Below, in pieces: positions 17,532 through 57,746 of a stretch of DNA of 64,000 nucleotides. Every line of letters begins with the position of its first letter. The stretch's first letter is position 1. This DNA comes from a virus: UHGV virus genome UHGV-1430915, one strand, 5' to 3'. A model generated the notes under the pieces. It saw only the letters and a program-made list of their open reading frames with translations, was not told the DNA's origin and ran no database searches. The position numbers were made by a program, and so were the translations under genes.

Positions 17532-17608
17532 TGGTCTCCACGGAGTGATTCGAACACTCGACCTCCTGATCCCAAATCAGGCGCTCTACCAAGCTGAGCT
17601 ACGCGGAG
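17532..17608 (-). tRNA. tRNA-Pro (anticodon TGG)
   Basis: Cloverleaf by hand: acceptor stem paired, D-arm GCTC/GAGC, anticodon loop TTTGGGA, T-loop GTTCGAATC, encoded CCA. Confidence 0.8.
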
Positions 17609-17619
17609 TATTTATTATT

Positions 17620-17694
17620 TGGTGGCCCTGGGTGGAATTGAACCACCGTCTGGCGATTATGAGTCGCTTGCTTGAACCTTCCAGCTACAGGGCC
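17620..17694 (-). tRNA. tRNA-Met (anticodon CAT)
   Basis: Acceptor GGCCCTG/CAGGGCC, anticodon loop CTCATAA, T-loop GGTTCAATTCC, CCA encoded. Confidence 0.8.
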
Positions 17695-17695
17695 A

Positions 17696-17771
17696 TGGTG
17701 CTGATGGCAGGACTTGAACCTGCAACCTATTGATTACAAATCAATTGCACTGCCAATTGTGCTACATCAGC
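17696..17771 (-). tRNA. tRNA-Thr (anticodon TGT)
   Basis: Acceptor GCTGATG/CATCAGC, anticodon loop TTTGTAA, T-loop GGTTCAAGTCC, CCA encoded. Confidence 0.8.
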
Positions 17772-17775
17772 AAAA

Positions 17776-17878
17776 GGTGCTAGGTGATGGAATCGAACCA
17801 CCTATGTATTCAACGACTACCTCGTCTATTTTCAGGATTAAAAATCCTCGCCCTTGCCAAAGGGCTTACCTAGCGCAA
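17776..17878 (-). ncRNA. tRNA-like element (perfect acceptor and T-arm; Lys-TTT-like anticodon loop; about 30 extra nt before T-arm; no encoded CCA)
   Basis: Acceptor GCTAGGT pairs with ACCTAGC, T-loop GGTTCGATTCC present, but region between anticodon and T arms far exceeds any normal variable arm. Confidence 0.4.
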
Positions 17879-17880
17879 TA

Positions 17881-17972
17881 TGTTGACCATGTGGCTAGTC
17901 GGCGATGACGACTGTAACATTTGATAATCCGGTTCTGCTTCCGGCTTTCGCTTAATTACAAGGTCAACAATG
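17881..17972 (-). ncRNA. candidate small structured RNA within tRNA cluster
   Basis: 8-bp closing stem TGTTGACC/GGTCAACA enclosing two hairpins (AGTCG..CGACT and CCGG..CCGG); lacks T-loop signature. Confidence 0.3.
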
Positions 17973-18063
17973 TGGCGGAGAGTAATGGAATCGAACCATC
18001 ATCGAGTCATCCTCAACGGGACGGTTTTCAAGACCGCTTGAGCACCATTGCTCCCTACCCTCC
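17973..18063 (-). tRNA. tRNA-Ser (anticodon TGA)
   Basis: Anticodon loop CTTGAAA, long variable arm, T-loop GGTTCGATTCC, acceptor GGAGGGT/ACTCTCC, CCA encoded. Confidence 0.8.
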
Positions 18064-18177
18064 TTTATAAATTACACTGATAATGACACTGATTTTCGAG
18101 CAGTTAGTGACTAGTATAAACGACGATAAATATCAATGTCATTATCTGTATGATTTATGCATTTAAAAATATAAATT

Positions 18178-18264
18178 TGGTGGGGAGTGGTGGAGTCGAA
18201 CCACCCGAGTCGCAATGACAATAGATTTACAGTCTACACCGCTACCTCTACGGGATAACTCCCC
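18178..18264 (-). tRNA. tRNA-Tyr (anticodon GTA)
   Basis: Anticodon loop CTGTAAA, long variable arm, acceptor GGGGAGT/ACTCCCC, CCA encoded. Confidence 0.8.
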
Positions 18265-18268
18265 AATT

Positions 18269-18343
18269 TGGCACCCCGTACTGGACTCGAACCAGTGTCA
18301 ACGGCTTAGAAGGCCGCTGCTTTATCCACTAAGCTAACAGGGC
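18269..18343 (-). tRNA. tRNA-Arg (anticodon TCT)
   Basis: Anticodon loop CTTCTAA, D-arm GCTT/AAGC, acceptor with G-U pairs, CCA encoded. Confidence 0.75.
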
Positions 18344-20723: not shown

Positions 20724-20806
20724 GTGTCCGTATCACGGACAGTTAGTGTCCGTATTACGGGCAGATGTGTCCGCGTGACGGACAGTAGTGTCCGTATCAC
20801 GGACAG
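20724..20806. repeat. iteron/operator array: four tandem palindromic units GTGTCCGT-ATC-ACGGACAG (period 21-22 bp)
   Basis: Four copies starting at 20724, 20746, 20767, 20788; units 1 and 4 identical; each has 7-bp inverted arms; adjacent AT-rich block with nested inverted repeats at about 20600-20700. Confidence 0.6.
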
Positions 20807-36966: not shown

Positions 36967-36995
36967 TTGACTAATAGTATTAGATAATCTATAAT
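36967..36995 (+). promoter_or_regulatory. sigma70 consensus promoter TTGACT-N17-TATAAT
   Basis: Near-perfect consensus immediately upstream of 36997 ORF. Confidence 0.55.
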
Positions 36996-36996
36996 A

Positions 36997-37497
36997 ATGG
37001 CTCACTTTGTTGGTGAGCCAGAAATGGAGACAGGTATGAGTAATGTTATGATTCCTAAAAAGACATTTATTTCAGTTACTTTAGATTTCCTATCTACTGT
37101 TCCCGGATTTAACGTTCGCACACGAAACGGTCTCCGAGCTGCACTCTTTGCTGTAGGGTTTGATTTAAAAAATATTGATGTTCTTCGTGGAAAAAACGTT
37201 CGATGCAAAAATAAGCCAACACATTATAGAAAGGCAGATGTATTTGCTGGTGTCATGCGTGCAGACTTTAGATACCCGCAAATGTATAACGGTGTAGATA
37301 TTTTAGATGTAGATAAAGCACCCGATGAGGCAATGCTTGTTCAAGATCTTCCCTATGATATCCCTGTAGAAGATCGTGTTAATGTAAGAAAGTATACAAA
37401 ACAATCTGAAAAGGCTGAAGATATTCATATTGTTGATGAACCTTTCAATTTTGAAGATCTGCATCGCCTGGAAAAATTATTCGGTATTGAAAGCTAA
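36997..37497 (+). CDS. hypothetical protein
   Basis: 166-aa ORF. Confidence 0.4.
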   Translation: MAHFVGEPEMETGMSNVMIPKKTFISVTLDFLSTVPGFNVRTRNGLRAALFAVGFDLKNIDVLRGKNVRCKNKPTHYRKADVFAGVMRADFRYPQMYNGVDILDVDKAPDEAMLVQDLPYDIPVEDRVNVRKYTKQSEKAEDIHIVDEPFNFEDLHRLEKLFGIES

Positions 37498-51955: not shown

Positions 51956-52239
51956 TAATGAAAAAGATTAACAGTAGTGAAGTAGAGTTTAAACTTGTCG
52001 GAAAAGGCACTTACTGGGAAGTTCGTCAAAAGGTATATTTGTTCGGTCTTATTCCCTACTGGTCTAAATTCTACTGGGGAGCTAACGAGTTGGGAAGATA
52101 CGCCACCAAATCAATGGCACTTATTGGTATAGCAGAGTACATTGCAGCCCGAGACAGGGTTGGAACCACTTATTACTACACTGCTGACGATATTCGTAAC
52201 AGTGTTTACGTCCCACAACCACCTGATGGAGACCGTTGA
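51952..52239 (+). CDS. hypothetical protein
   Basis: 95-aa ORF. Confidence 0.4.
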   Translation: MIMKKINSSEVEFKLVGKGTYWEVRQKVYLFGLIPYWSKFYWGANELGRYATKSMALIGIAEYIAARDRVGTTYYYTADDIRNSVYVPQPPDGDR

Positions 52240-52463
52240 TGAAAGTTAAAGTTTTAGATTCAAGCTTCTATATTGGTCAGGAGCCTTTAGTAGGAAAAGT
52301 GTTTACTGCTGTCCCTAACGAAGATTACCCTGACCTTTTAAAAATAAAAGGAGCAGATCTTATTGCCGCTGGTGCATCTCAGGAATGCTTTGACAGTCAG
52401 TGGACCTATAACTTTGCCCTAGGTGAGGATGTAGAGGTAGTGGAGGACGATCATGAAGGTTAA
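52236..52463 (+). CDS. small protein, MKVK paralog family
   Basis: Paralog of 48679, 52453, 54590. Confidence 0.5.
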   Translation: MMKVKVLDSSFYIGQEPLVGKVFTAVPNEDYPDLLKIKGADLIAAGASQECFDSQWTYNFALGEDVEVVEDDHEG

Positions 52464-52707
52464 AATTCTTGATTCTAACGTCTACTTGGGACAATCCTTC
52501 CTGAATGGAAAGGTCGTTCCTGCGGTATACTTTGAAGGGTTGCCGTGGGATGATCCTGTGCGGCAACATCACAGTTATGTAGGCCACAACGTGGTGTTTA
52601 TCTTGGGATCAGACCTGATCACCGCTGGTGCACCTGAATATTATTTCGGGGAAGAGTCCTACTATGCCTTTGGGGTAGGGTCAGATGCAGATATTGTAGA
52701 GCTGTGA
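52453..52707 (+). CDS. small protein, MKVK paralog family
   Basis: Paralog of 52236. Confidence 0.5.
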   Translation: MKVKILDSNVYLGQSFLNGKVVPAVYFEGLPWDDPVRQHHSYVGHNVVFILGSDLITAGAPEYYFGEESYYAFGVGSDADIVEL

Positions 52708-52719
52708 TGGGTAACCGTT

Positions 52720-53109
52720 GTGAAAAATAAACTGTTTAAAGTTACAATGAAAATTCGCGGAGCTTGGAGCGTAAAGCAAGGGCGCATCCCAGAGTTTGAG
52801 AAAGACTTCTACGTAGTCTCCACCTCTGAAGAGGCTGCATGCTGGCAGGCTGGATATGCCTATGCAAGAACCTGGTACGAAGGATACCAGACTGGAGGCT
52901 ATGACGGAGAAATTGTCAGCAAGGGTGTGGAAGAAATTAATGTGTTGACAAGTGAAAAAGTTTTTGTTATAGTGCATCCTGATTCTAGAGTGAAGCATTA
53001 CTGGAATGCCAGAACAAAAACCTGGACACCGTTTGCAGATTCTGCTACACCGCTTTTAAACCAGAAAGCTCTTGACTCTGCCCCAAGCTATGTGTTGAAG
53101 AAAAGATAA
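52720..53109 (+). CDS. hypothetical protein, paralog of 54922-55317
   Basis: Shares VHPDSRVKHYWNARTKTWTP versus MRHPHSNIAYYWDVLNNEWTP and other blocks with 54922 ORF. Confidence 0.5.
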   Translation: MKNKLFKVTMKIRGAWSVKQGRIPEFEKDFYVVSTSEEAACWQAGYAYARTWYEGYQTGGYDGEIVSKGVEEINVLTSEKVFVIVHPDSRVKHYWNARTKTWTPFADSATPLLNQKALDSAPSYVLKKR

Positions 53110-53193
53110 GCTGAAATAGTGGGGTACTTACATGATGGATTTAGTTTTGGACACTGATAACACCGAATCGTTTAAAAAGATGGTGTAATAAGC

Positions 53194-53421
53194 ATGGACC
53201 AACCCTGCCATGCCAAGATTGACTCAAAATGGACCTACAAGTTTGACGGTGAGATCTTCGCAAATGATGAGAAGGTCGTGGATGCTGTAGCCATTTTAAA
53301 CGCTTTAGGGTATGACCCTGTGAACTCATTGATCAAGGATCCTGTTGAGTTTGCAGAGTATGTTCGTAAAATGGCAGATCTTGCAGTAGATATTTTAAAA
53401 ACTATCGACGACAAGCTGTAA
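53194..53421 (+). CDS. hypothetical protein
   Basis: 75-aa ORF. Confidence 0.4.
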   Translation: MDQPCHAKIDSKWTYKFDGEIFANDEKVVDAVAILNALGYDPVNSLIKDPVEFAEYVRKMADLAVDILKTIDDKL

Positions 53422-53427
53422 AAACTG

Positions 53428-53456
53428 TTGACACAACACTTGATCTTTAGTATCAT
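53428..53456 (+). promoter_or_regulatory. sigma70-like promoter TTGACA-N17-TATCAT
   Basis: Upstream of HPF-like gene; followed by 5-prime UTR hairpin at 53465-53485. Confidence 0.5.
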
Positions 53457-53503
53457 TATTTTCAAAGAGGGTTTGGTTCCCTCTTCTTTAAAAGGAGCAC
53501 GTT

Positions 53504-53821
53504 ATGCAGATTGAAATCACTGGCAACGTAGATATCACTGAAGGTATGGTGTCTTTCATTTCCCACAAAATGTCCAAACTGGAGCGTTTGCACCCATCTG
53601 CCAACTATGCACGTGTGAGTGTAAAAGTTGAAAATGATCACCAGGAAGTTATGGCTTTTATTTTTGACAATTCTGGGAAAGAAGTTATCGCCAAAGCTAA
53701 AGGTAGCGATGCTTACGAGGCAACTGACCGTATGGTGGATGTTGCAGCACGCCAGTTGGCTAAATGCGGTGGAAAGAAAGGTAAGGGAAAAGGTAAAGTA
53801 AAGATTGACTTTTTAGATTAA
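53504..53821 (+). CDS. ribosome hibernation promoting factor / RaiA (YfiA) family homolog
   Basis: Colinear match to E. coli HPF: MQIEITGNVDITEGM...KLERL...VSVKVE...GKEVIAKAKGSDAYEATDRMVDVAARQLAK versus MQLNITGNNVEITEAL...KLEQY...VVLKVE...GGEIHASAEGQDMYAAIDGLIDKLARQLTK. Confidence 0.75.
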   Translation: MQIEITGNVDITEGMVSFISHKMSKLERLHPSANYARVSVKVENDHQEVMAFIFDNSGKEVIAKAKGSDAYEATDRMVDVAARQLAKCGGKKGKGKGKVKIDFLD

Positions 53822-53959
53822 GGTGCTACAATGGGCATGATTAAGAAATTAGTCCCAAATGTAGAGATTGCATGCTTTGAAATTATGTTTGCAATCGCAG
53901 TTGTAGTTAATGTGTTAGGTTACGGCTATTAATTATCAAATAATTGAGGAGACCTCTAA

Positions 53960-54229
53960 ATGAAAATTAAATTATTCAAAACTGAGCTGGCAGACAAAAA
54001 CTGCGGACTGGTTGAAGGCATGATCGTTGAAGCACAACCAGTTGACTACATGAAGGTGGTTCGTGATGCCCTGGGTGAAGGTTTTGATCTGATGGAGCCA
54101 GCTCTGCGAGAAGATGTCATCGAGATGGCTAAAAAGCACACACCGGAAGGTTTGGTAGTGTTTGTTGCACCAGGTAACGGGGAAGAGTTGATTGTAACTC
54201 CGGATGTGTATGAGGTTGTAGAAGAGTAA
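53960..54229 (+). CDS. hypothetical small acidic protein
   Basis: 89-aa ORF. Confidence 0.45.
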   Translation: MKIKLFKTELADKNCGLVEGMIVEAQPVDYMKVVRDALGEGFDLMEPALREDVIEMAKKHTPEGLVVFVAPGNGEELIVTPDVYEVVEE

Positions 54230-54589: not shown

Positions 54590-54922
54590 ATGAAAGTACG
54601 CTTTATTGGTGAAACAATTCCTGTGCATCTCCGGTCTCCTGAAGACTCTGCAGATCTTGCATCTCAAAAGGCGAGAGGGTATGATAAGAAAGTGATCTCA
54701 AGCAATGTAGAGCTTGAGGCCACCAGTCTGCCTGACCCAGCTGCATTCTTCAATCATTATGGCTACTATTTTAGCAATCTGATGAATATTGGTGAGCTTG
54801 TGTTTATTAGTGGTGGAGAGATAGTTAGCAAGCTTGGTGGAGATCCGGATATCTTTCATGAAACCTGTCCTTTTGCATTTGTGGTGGGTTCAGATGTGGA
54901 AGTTATTGAGGAGGTTCGGTAA
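54590..54922 (+). CDS. small protein, MKVK paralog family
   Basis: Start at MKVRFIG. Confidence 0.45.
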   Translation: MKVRFIGETIPVHLRSPEDSADLASQKARGYDKKVISSNVELEATSLPDPAAFFNHYGYYFSNLMNIGELVFISGGEIVSKLGGDPDIFHETCPFAFVVGSDVEVIEEVR

Positions 54923-55317
54923 TGGTAAGTCTATACCGTGTTGAGTATAGCTCGGATACTGTATACAACGTAAGAAGCAAAGATCGCAGTGATAGAGTGC
55001 AAGAAATGTATGTTCTTGCAGATAGTCCGTTATCTGCAGCGTTCAAGGCAGGAGCTCTTGCATCTCGTTGGAAATTTGAGGGTGGATCTTTCTATGAAGA
55101 AACCCTCGAAGATTCTGTTGTTATTTCTTCTGTAGAGGTTTCAACCGACTACGAAGGGAAAAAGTTCGTAATGCGGCACCCACACAGCAACATTGCGTAC
55201 TACTGGGATGTTCTGAACAATGAGTGGACCCCTGATCTTCAGAAGGCCACTGTTCTAACCCCATTCCTGGCAGATAAGTTCCCACCAGAAGGTAATTTAT
55301 CTGCACTGTTTCAGTAA
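54922..55317 (+). CDS. hypothetical protein, paralog of 52720-53109
   Basis: See 52720 entry. Confidence 0.5.
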   Translation: MVSLYRVEYSSDTVYNVRSKDRSDRVQEMYVLADSPLSAAFKAGALASRWKFEGGSFYEETLEDSVVISSVEVSTDYEGKKFVMRHPHSNIAYYWDVLNNEWTPDLQKATVLTPFLADKFPPEGNLSALFQ

Positions 55318-55364: not shown

Positions 55365-55396
55365 ACCTTCATCTTAACAAGATAGGAGACCGATTG

Positions 55397-55654
55397 ATGA
55401 AGATTAAATTGAAAAACCTTGAAACGGCAGAGATTCAGGAAGGTGTTGATTTCCGTTCTAAAGATGGAGACATCCTAGAGGCGAATGTCCCGACATATAA
55501 GTTGATTAAAGGTTTTGGCAACGTTCCGGAGGAGGATATTACAGACATTCTTATGATGTTGATCCTTGACGGGACTGTGTTTGTAGGTGAAGGTGAGAAC
55601 GCTATTGCAATCCCGAGCCATTTTTATGAAGTAGTTGACGAAGAGGTGCTGTAA
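55397..55654 (+). CDS. hypothetical small acidic protein
   Basis: AGGAGA RBS; MKIKLKN start. Confidence 0.45.
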   Translation: MKIKLKNLETAEIQEGVDFRSKDGDILEANVPTYKLIKGFGNVPEEDITDILMMLILDGTVFVGEGENAIAIPSHFYEVVDEEVL

Positions 55655-57715: not shown

Positions 57716-57720
57716 CAACG

Positions 57721-57746
57721 AAGAGGGGTCTTGGCCCCTCTTTTTT
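57721..57746 (+). terminator. intrinsic terminator
   Basis: AAGAGGGG-tcttgg-CCCCTCTT stem followed by TTTTAC. Confidence 0.55.

Follow-up and report, generated by a model that had tools for sequence, protein, structure and literature searches.

Features of the locus

We analysed a stretch of 64,000 nucleotides of the viral genome UHGV-1430915, referred to here as the window, within which the locus of interest spans positions 53428 to 53821. It comprises a short ORF of the HPF family and the leader that precedes it, with the following features.

53428-53456, + strand: predicted sigma-70-type early promoter TTGACA-N17-TATCAT (-35 element at 53428-53433, -10 element at 53451-53456), matching the consensus at 11 of 12 positions
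53465-53485, + strand: hairpin AAGAGGG-TTTGGTT-CCCTCTT (5' arm 53465-53471, 3' arm 53479-53485), -9.9 kcal/mol
53478-53503, + strand: 26-nt lineage-specific indel TCCCTCTTCTTTAAAAGGAGCACGTT, from a MAFFT alignment with four sister-lineage loci
53492-53497, + strand: Shine-Dalgarno (SD) sequence AAGGAG, 6 nt before the ATG of the HPF-family ORF
53504-53821, + strand: HPF-family ORF of 105 aa, starting with MQIEITG, containing DVAARQL and ending in KGKGKGKVKIDFLD
53504-53779, + strand: HPF (S30AE) domain, residues 1-92, from PF02482, TIGR00741, the AlphaFold model and Foldseek
53780-53821, + strand: Lys/Gly-rich disordered C-terminal tail, residues 93-105 (GKGKGKVKIDFLD), with the stop codon, from pLDDT and charge

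The protein encoded by the ORF 53504-53821 reads MQIEITGNVDITEG...DVAARQLAKCGGKKGKGKGKVKIDFLD. The initial annotation of this DNA had described the ORF, the promoter and the hairpin, and all of them were found at these positions.

Homology and predicted fold of the protein

The initial annotation had taken the product for an HPF/RaiA homolog and proposed a search with the S30AE/HPF family profile. When this search was run, PF02482 (Ribosomal_S30AE) matched residues 3-88 with 48.2 bits against a GA cut-off of 23.7 (E 1.8e-12), and TIGR00741 (HPF/YfiA family) gave 45.5 bits against a curated cut-off of 40.9. The short HPF equivalog (NCBIfam NF007780 / PRK10470) scored 54.9 bits, below its cut-off of 125, and the RaiA/YfiA equivalog (NCBIfam NF007654) scored 16.1 bits, below its cut-off of 158. 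By these scores the phage protein appears HPF-like yet too diverged for an HPF equivalog call. The best PDB sequence matches were to E. coli HPF (2RQL, 4V8H and 6H4N; E ~1e-11, 1.4e-11), colinear over residues 1-89, confirming over that span the colinear alignment with E. coli HPF noticed earlier, while RaiA in the PDB matched with an E value of 0.81. A tblastn search with E. coli HPF as query aligned with the ORF at 42% identity over 88 aa (E 5.6e-14), and one with an approximate E. coli YfiA query gave no match to the ORF at E values up to 10.

An AlphaFold model built from the sequence alone was of low quality (pLDDT 65.7, with the tail mispredicted as a strand), and the MSA-based model was used instead. 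The latter had an overall pLDDT of 85.8, exceeding 90 over residues 1-80, with a tail that is disordered from residue 93 (~47-51), and showed a beta-alpha-beta-beta-beta-alpha topology (E2-7, H13-29, E33-42, E47-55, E60-67, H70-92). When the model was compared with the PDB by Foldseek, the best 37 matches were all HPF/YfiA/pY proteins, headed by V. cholerae HPF (TM 0.93, RMSD 1.0 A); E. coli HPF in the 100S ribosome matched with a TM of 0.90, an RMSD of 1.2 A and 40% identity. Far down the list stood T7 Gp1.2 (E 3.7e-3) and SPO1 Acb4 (E 2e-2), with TM values of 0.4-0.6.

The protein is a genuine member of the HPF family, as profile, fold and conserved residues all bear out. It is of the short-HPF type rather than RaiA, since it scores higher with the HPF than with the RaiA equivalog, matches RaiA in the PDB only at the E value given above and finds no tblastn partner in YfiA. 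In the label HPF/RaiA the first half thus stands and the second does not. For the same reasons, namely the RaiA equivalog score, the PDB match and an unrelated tail, the RefSeq name 'RaiA' for the phage gene seems imprecise.

E. coli short HPF (YhbH; 2RQL, 6H4N, 6Y69) has the same fold at 40-42% identity and is likewise short, without a dimerisation domain. The phage protein shares with it, in E. coli numbering, K23, K26, D69, Y71, D75, R83, K87 and K91, but differs in having V for K80, F for T53 and L for Y30, and a longer, Lys/Gly-rich tail; moreover, the E. coli gene lies in the rpoN operon, whereas the phage gene lies in a putative early operon. E. coli YfiA/RaiA (protein Y) belongs to the same fold family, and both proteins have a C-terminal extension past the domain. 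Sequence similarity between them is nevertheless marginal and their tail sequences are unrelated: the tail of YfiA is not known to be basic or Lys/Gly-rich, whereas that of the phage protein is.

Known phage copies and evolution of the gene

Across the region, identity is 96-97% with Escherichia phages HMD-6 and FV3 and 93-95% with rV5 and many further genomes of Vequintavirus, and the window belongs to an rV5/FV3-like Vequintavirus. In a phage collection searched by tblastn the protein was found in 119 records, 118 of them rV5-like phages (at least 90% identity) and the other a Salmonella genome record (41%). Database labels for the gene include 'sigma 54 modulation factor', 'ribosome hibernation factor', 'hpf' and 'RaiA'. 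The product is encoded by the same gene as rV5 ORF144 (ABI79209) and FV3 gp136 (YP_007006307), named 'sigma 54 modulation factor / ribosome hibernation factor', with which it shares 98-99% protein identity, synteny, the promoter and membership of PHROG 12469 (E 7e-70). The differences are of strain level only: D10 in the window for E10, and a C-terminus FLD for FGE or FWD.

The gene has been annotated in rV5-like coliphages since 2006. The GenBank record of rV5 (DQ832317) already carries both the gene, as ORF144, and its promoter ('Sigma70-type promoter; P144'); Mizuno et al. 2019 (PMC6375957) included the proteins of rV5 and FV3 in a list of ribosomal proteins encoded by viruses, and Mathieu et al. 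2020 (PMC6969025) noted hpf in five rV5-like gut isolates. Because of the rV5 record and the report of Mizuno et al., the gene, its homology and its promoter are already known. Literature searches yielded no subsequent functional work on a phage HPF, and nothing relevant on Vequintavirus transcriptomics or on links between hibernation and phage infection.

Over codons 1-88 in 10 Vequintavirus genomes, dN/dS was 0.00-0.14 with dS up to 0.59; purifying selection on the phage HPF is strong. A word-indexed protein search returned near-identical phage copies only, whereas an exhaustive HMMER search of 1.8 billion representatives reached cellular relatives and a more distant phage ortholog, with only 21 matches at E <=1e-3. 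The nearest relative in this search (P0005) has 103 aa and 64% identity, and beyond it no genuine relative exceeds 44% identity. A stronger match than these (P0006, 1160 aa, eight matched stretches) was considered as a tandem S30AE array and rejected as a spurious match to a repetitive PPC-domain protein.

The 64%-identical ortholog lies at the syntenic position in a diverged rV5-like sister lineage, represented by contigs of 124-137 kb from two NCBI and two Logan assemblies; known Vequintaviruses cover 17% of the sister-lineage locus at ~86% identity. This lineage was not found in the phage collection, in IMG/VR or among GTDB representatives. In the collections searched, phage HPF was found only in rV5-like (Vequintavirus) coliphages and this one unsampled sister lineage. 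Since an ortholog of 64% identity holds the syntenic position in a diverged lineage, the gene appears to be an old, stably inherited acquisition and not a recent one.

Promoter and probable time of expression

That the gene has its own sigma-70 promoter, as first proposed, was borne out, the element being conserved and near-consensus. The -35 hexamer is invariant in all 10 Vequintavirus relatives compared and the -10 hexamer in nine of them (TATTAT in DrSchubert), and the sister lineage retains TTGACA-17-AATTAT upstream of its ortholog. On these grounds the assignment as a putative sigma-70 promoter is well supported. The usual promoter spacing would place the transcription start at about 53463-53464.

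The promoter also belongs to an enriched set. Sequences with at least 11 of 12 matches to TTGACA-N16-18-TATAAT occur 11 times on the + strand against 0.84 expected from Markov-1 simulations, an excess of ~13-fold, and every one of them falls within 26.8-59.5 kb. Small + strand ORFs fill 51.5-56 kb, the part of this promoter-rich stretch whose ORFs were examined; the stretch is probably the early region. A conserved near-consensus promoter within a 13-fold enriched set points to early expression of the HPF gene.

The leader hairpin

The hairpin begins 1-2 nt past the predicted transcription start. It ranks within the top 2.2% of 32-nt windows, and ~20 other loci with perfect 7-bp hairpins occur in the 64 kb. 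The folding of the 63-nt stretch 53458-53520 (leader and first codons) is not more stable than that of shuffled sequence (z = -0.9), and an Rfam search with the hairpin leader gave no match at E up to 1. Among 10 relatives within the genus the 3' arm is invariant, whereas the 5' arm and loop vary, and hairpin energies in other relatives are -9.3, -6.5 and -5.3 kcal/mol; the last two belong to interrupted stems, as in four of the 10 relatives a G has changed to A, producing an uncompensated A-C mismatch.

In the MAFFT alignment with four sister-lineage loci the hairpin is missing from the sister lineage, which is without the 26-nt stretch 53478-53503. In the window this stretch provides both the 3' arm of the hairpin and the working SD, AAGGAG. 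In the same alignment CAAAGAGGGTTTGGT of the window aligns with CAATGAGGGACTGGT of the sister lineage, in which the ATG follows directly. The sister GAGGG, aligned to the 5' arm of the window and lying 6 nt before the ATG, acts as the SD there, and from this alignment we take the 5' arm of the hairpin to be the counterpart of the sister-lineage SD.

The initial annotation had read the hairpin as a sign of regulated expression. Such a gene-specific regulator might work as an attenuator or terminator for upstream read-through, or as an autoregulatory SD/anti-SD-like mimic bound by the protein itself. The stem AAGAGGG/CCCUCUU does resemble an SD:anti-SD duplex, CUUCUUU follows it, identical arms make up a genuine bidirectional terminator at 57720-57743, and some hairpin potential exists in all 10 relatives. 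Set against this are the missing Rfam match, the uncompensated mismatch in four of the relatives, the sister lineage without a 3' arm, the unexceptional folding of 53458-53520 and the presence of similar 5' hairpins after other promoters. An intrinsic terminator was rejected, as the terminator scan does not call the hairpin and its U-tract is poor (CUUCUUUAAAA), and so was a CsrA site in the loop, which by eye reads UUUGGUU or AUAGUUAU and holds no GGA. For a structured cis-regulatory element in the 5' UTR we found no known family, no covariation and no cross-lineage conservation. The suggestion of regulated expression was therefore not upheld, given the lack of an Rfam match, the variable 5' arm, the absence of the hairpin from the sister lineage and the commonness of 5' hairpins, and we regard a gene-specific regulator as highly improbable.

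A more general role fits these observations better. A 5'-proximal hairpin of -7.6 kcal/mol or below is present in five of the 11 strong-promoter transcripts against 7.4% of background windows (P = 7e-4), and the enrichment persists without the focal case (P = 0.004). That 5'-terminal stem-loops stabilise mRNAs is established E. coli biology, for which the ompA leader, reportedly described by Emory, Bouvet and Belasco in 1992, is an example. As in the E. coli stem-loops, the phage hairpin lies within ~2 nt of the predicted 5' end, and this arrangement recurs at several of the strong promoters of the phage; unlike the ompA type, the phage stem is weaker in some relatives and missing in the sister lineage. 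From this comparison the hairpin is most likely a 5'-terminal mRNA-stabilising stem-loop common to several early transcripts, not a gene-specific riboswitch.

Ribosome-contact residues and the C-terminal tail

We compared the phage protein with its homologs in a 19-sequence alignment, using the list of ribosome contacts from a 2025 cryo-EM preprint. According to that preprint, E. coli HPF and YfiA share the basic residues K80, R83, K87 and K91, which touch 16S rRNA; R83 touches m4C1402, T53 and residue 62 touch m2G966, and K26, Q29, Y30 and D75 contribute further to ribosome contact. In the alignment D69 and Y71, which are invariant across the family, are present in the phage protein, and so are the nearly invariant G7, K22 (E. 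coli K23) and D75; K25 (E. coli K26), R83, K87 and K91 are retained as well. The substitutions are K80 to V, T53 to F and Y30 to L (then H), of which position 80 is variable in cellular homologs too. With R83, K87, K91, D75 and K25 kept but K80, T53 and Y30 replaced, the ribosome-binding face appears to be largely, though not entirely, retained. By eye, the two phage lineages agree at ~9 of 19 contact positions, against 64% overall identity, so this comparison does not separate a protein that still binds ribosomes from one whose fold has been put to another use.

The charge of the protein is unevenly distributed. Residues 1-86 have a net charge of -3, making the domain mildly acidic, and residues 87-105 one of +5; the pI is 8.7 as compared to 6.5 for E. 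coli HPF. Compared with E. coli HPF the tail has 10 additional residues, and it forms a basic, disordered extension of 13-19 residues. The 64%-identical ortholog has a basic tail too, though without conservation of its sequence (KYSKSKGIDKRTAKWDY). The Murica, APCEc02 and YN3 records show a frameshift in the tail, with matches ending at residue 88, which may reflect homopolymer sequencing errors. Since its sequence is unconserved between the lineages and it is frameshifted in three records, the tail may be dispensable.

Possible role in infection

Given the strong purifying selection and the strong early promoter, the phage HPF almost certainly does something useful for the phage. The experimental evidence on what it does comes from the rV5 protein (PMC6375957). 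When expressed in E. coli, this protein was present in the crude extract and absent from the 70S and 100S fractions, and its expression left 100S levels unchanged (PMC6375957), so that, unlike E. coli HPF, which turns the 90S dimers induced by RMF into 100S, it has no observed stimulation of 100S formation. The cells had been harvested at OD 1, in late exponential phase, and the ribosomes pelleted through 500 mM NH4Cl; the authors named growth phase and salt stripping as possible causes of the negative result and did not consider it decisive (PMC6375957). The initial annotation had named two findings that would count against its proposal. One of them, a spurious resemblance, is contradicted by the profile and the fold; the other, failure to bind ribosomes, is on record in this one published form, after the 500 mM NH4Cl wash, with the reservation of its authors.

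The explanation we prefer, which we hold with a little less than even confidence as a whole, is that of a short HPF-type gene whose product binds reversibly in the decoding channel of idle ribosomes with a YfiA-like outcome. An ancestor of the rV5-like coliphages would have captured the gene from a gammaproteobacterium long ago, and it would since have been kept under strong purifying selection. Host RNA polymerase would transcribe it from the strong sigma-70 early promoter, with the gene at the head of a small early operon. Like HPF and YfiA, the folded domain would then occupy the decoding channel of the 30S subunit (A/P-site region) in idle host ribosomes, binding reversibly by means of the retained basic track of alpha-2 (R83, K87, K91) and the face of the beta-sheet, and the Lys/Gly tail may increase the affinity for rRNA non-specifically and extend in the direction of the mRNA channel and the RMF site. 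No RMF homolog was found within the window. As with YfiA, 70S ribosomes would be occupied instead of 100S being promoted, and in this way non-translating ribosomes might be parked and protected during infection, e.g. in slow-growing or stationary hosts. The YfiA-like outcome is suggested by the longer disordered tail with its charge of +5, by the absence of a 100S rise with the rV5 protein and by the finding that the flexible C-terminal tail of YfiA blocks the binding of RMF and RMF-dependent 100S formation (2025 cryo-EM preprint). Protection is a possible pay-off since cellular hibernation factors, according to PMC7913689, keep ribonucleases out of the ribosome.

Several points tell against reversible binding to idle ribosomes. 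An early general translation inhibitor would also harm phage protein synthesis, the rV5 protein was undetected in 70S and 100S though it was in the extract, contact residues are substituted, and the HPF equivalog cut-off was missed. The last three would also fit a protein that has lost ribosome binding and whose alpha/beta fold and basic tail serve some other early task, such as binding of RNA or host proteins, action as a decoy or anti-defence. The identity to E. coli HPF of only 40-42% and the weak fold likeness to T7 Gp1.2 and SPO1 Acb4 are in keeping with this, and the strong purifying selection shows some function, not which. Yet the residues invariant in the family remain, as do three of the four basic contacts shared by HPF and YfiA, the likeness to the phage inhibitors is poor (TM 0.4-0.6) as compared to 0.9 for HPFs, and even a genuine hibernation factor would probably be lost in the ribosome preparation used. 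We therefore judge such a repurposed fold to be unlikely.

An outcome opposite to hibernation was proposed by Mizuno et al. (PMC6375957), in whose view a viral HPF might compete with host factors and so prevent ribosome dimerisation. A competitor of this kind would bind weakly and displaceably at the HPF/YfiA site, and through its tail at the RMF site, and would keep the host from locking its ribosomes into 100S, or displace host factors, leaving ribosomes available for phage mRNAs, a possibility to which we give rather low credence. Retention of the binding-face residues with loss of K80, the extended basic tail, probable early expression from the sigma-70 promoter, and the published findings of no 100S increase and of a ribosome association that is salt-labile or absent are all consistent with it. 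No decrease of 100S was reported either, although late-exponential cells had little 100S to lose, and the proposal overlaps heavily with reversible occupancy of idle ribosomes, from which only its physiological outcome differs. Along related lines the protein could be, instead of a hibernation factor as cells use it, an early effector, its HPF fold and Lys/Gly tail transiently occupying the decoding channel and the RMF site and countering host hibernation or ribosome-directed nucleases and defences. This is an improbable reading; if true, the phage could infect slow-growing or stationary cells productively, and the reading would make the protein a dedicated viral 'anti-hibernation / ribosome-guard' factor, a class without a characterised member.

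Finally, an early protein that occupies the A and P sites of free ribosomes could shut off the host by blocking initiation on its mRNAs, considering that HPF and YfiA occlude mRNA and tRNA sites and that the promoter is of early type. However, nothing would confer selectivity between host and phage mRNAs, and expression in E. coli was without effect on 70S stability or the ribosome profile (PMC6375957), with no toxicity described; we consider host shut-off very unlikely. Viruses have few direct ways in which they could reprogram bacterial translation, and ribosome-associated proteins encoded by phages are one of them. With existence, homology and promoter on record and one binding attempt negative or inconclusive, the value that remains in this gene is experimental rather than one of discovery.

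Neighbouring ORFs

An 89-aa ORF at 53960-54229, two genes downstream of the HPF gene, is named 'sigma 54 modulation factor' in several records but matches nothing in Pfam; the name has been carried over to the wrong gene. In the window, the neighbouring ORF upstream of the HPF gene carries a frameshift.

A hairpin arm within a short indel

The four sister-lineage loci (L010-L013; NCBI assemblies GCA_012894635.1 and GCA_034560175.1, Logan assemblies ERR13959479 and ERR10101818) come from a diverged rV5-like lineage, represented by contigs of 124-137 kb, which carries an HPF ortholog of 64% identity at the syntenic site. Alignment of the window with these loci revealed a 26-nt indel between the two phage lineages, at 53478-53503 in the window as compared with the stretch 7935-8010 of L010-L013. 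In the sister lineage the Shine-Dalgarno sequence is GAGGG, which in the alignment falls opposite the 5' arm of the window's hpf leader hairpin, and the extra segment of the window lineage (53478-53503) comprises the complementary hairpin arm together with a new Shine-Dalgarno sequence. The L010-L013 lineage was not found in the INPHARED phage set, IMG/VR or the GTDB representatives, and probably represents a sister group of Vequintavirus that sampling has so far missed.

Stem-loops downstream of near-consensus promoters

Hairpins of -7.6 kcal/mol or lower were present within a few nt downstream of 5 of the 11 near-consensus sigma-70 promoters on the + strand at 26848-59467 in the window, an association with P of about 7e-4 against background. 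The association suggests 5'-terminal stem-loops as a general trait of the early transcripts of this phage. One such pair, and a further hairpin whose arms nearly match the AAGAGGG and CCCTCTT arms of the hpf leader hairpin, are as follows.

36967-36995, + strand, promoter, followed by a hairpin at 36999-37019
57720-57743, bidirectional terminator-like hairpin (GAAGAGGGGTCTTGGCCCCTCTTT, then a T-run)

Small ORFs around hpf

The hpf gene is surrounded by small ORFs, among which paralog pairs were detected at 52236-52707, 52720-53109, 53960-54229, 54922-55317 and 55394-55654.

52236-52707, small-ORF region
52720-53109, small ORF
53131-53421, homolog of rV5 ORF143, upstream of hpf, 96 aa in relatives
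53831-53932, + strand, 33-aa hydrophobic ORF (MGMIKKLVPNVEIACFEIMFAIAVVVNVLGYGY)
53960-54229, + strand, 89-aa ORF, two genes downstream of hpf
54922-55317, small ORF
55394-55654, small ORF

The 75-aa and 84-aa products share 40% identity (E 4e-16) and the 129-aa and 131-aa products 26% (E 4e-9); the match between the 89-aa and 86-aa products is weak (E 0.006). None of the paralogous small ORFs that were tested matched Pfam. The homolog of rV5 ORF143 is frameshifted in the window, where an A-run at about 53172-53177 has 5 A as against 6 A in HMD-6 and FV3, thereby leaving a residual ORF of only 75 aa, from 53194. This frameshift could be a true mutation or a homopolymer sequencing error. The start of the 33-aa ORF lies 10 nt beyond the stop codon of hpf. 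Most Vequintavirus records annotate this ORF, which the sister lineage lacks. A promoter-like sequence, TTGACT-16-TACAAT (53805-53832), overlaps the 3' end of hpf.

Labels in database records

Several GenBank records (HMD-6, A6-1, APCEc02) give the name 'sigma 54 modulation factor' to the 89-aa ORF, which is without a Pfam match; the name seems to have been displaced from the true hpf, which lies two genes upstream. Other records call hpf itself 'ATP-dependent protease La type I'. Host labels look doubtful as well for the MG0656xx phage-collection records named 'Campylobacter phage': all 18 show at least 93% identity to E. coli rV5-like phages over the hpf region, and 16 of them list Campylobacter jejuni as host.

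Other features of the window

Two further features lie elsewhere in the window.

17532-18343, - strand, cluster of seven tRNA genes (Pro, Met, Thr, Ser, Tyr, Arg)
20725-20805, densely clustered 7-bp inverted repeats (TGTCCGT / ACGGACA)

One member of the tRNA cluster (17776-17874) is a 99-nt tRNA-like gene for which ARAGORN calls a 4-base anticodon. The inverted repeats form four overlapping short hairpins, and could serve as an array of protein-binding sites or as an origin-like element.
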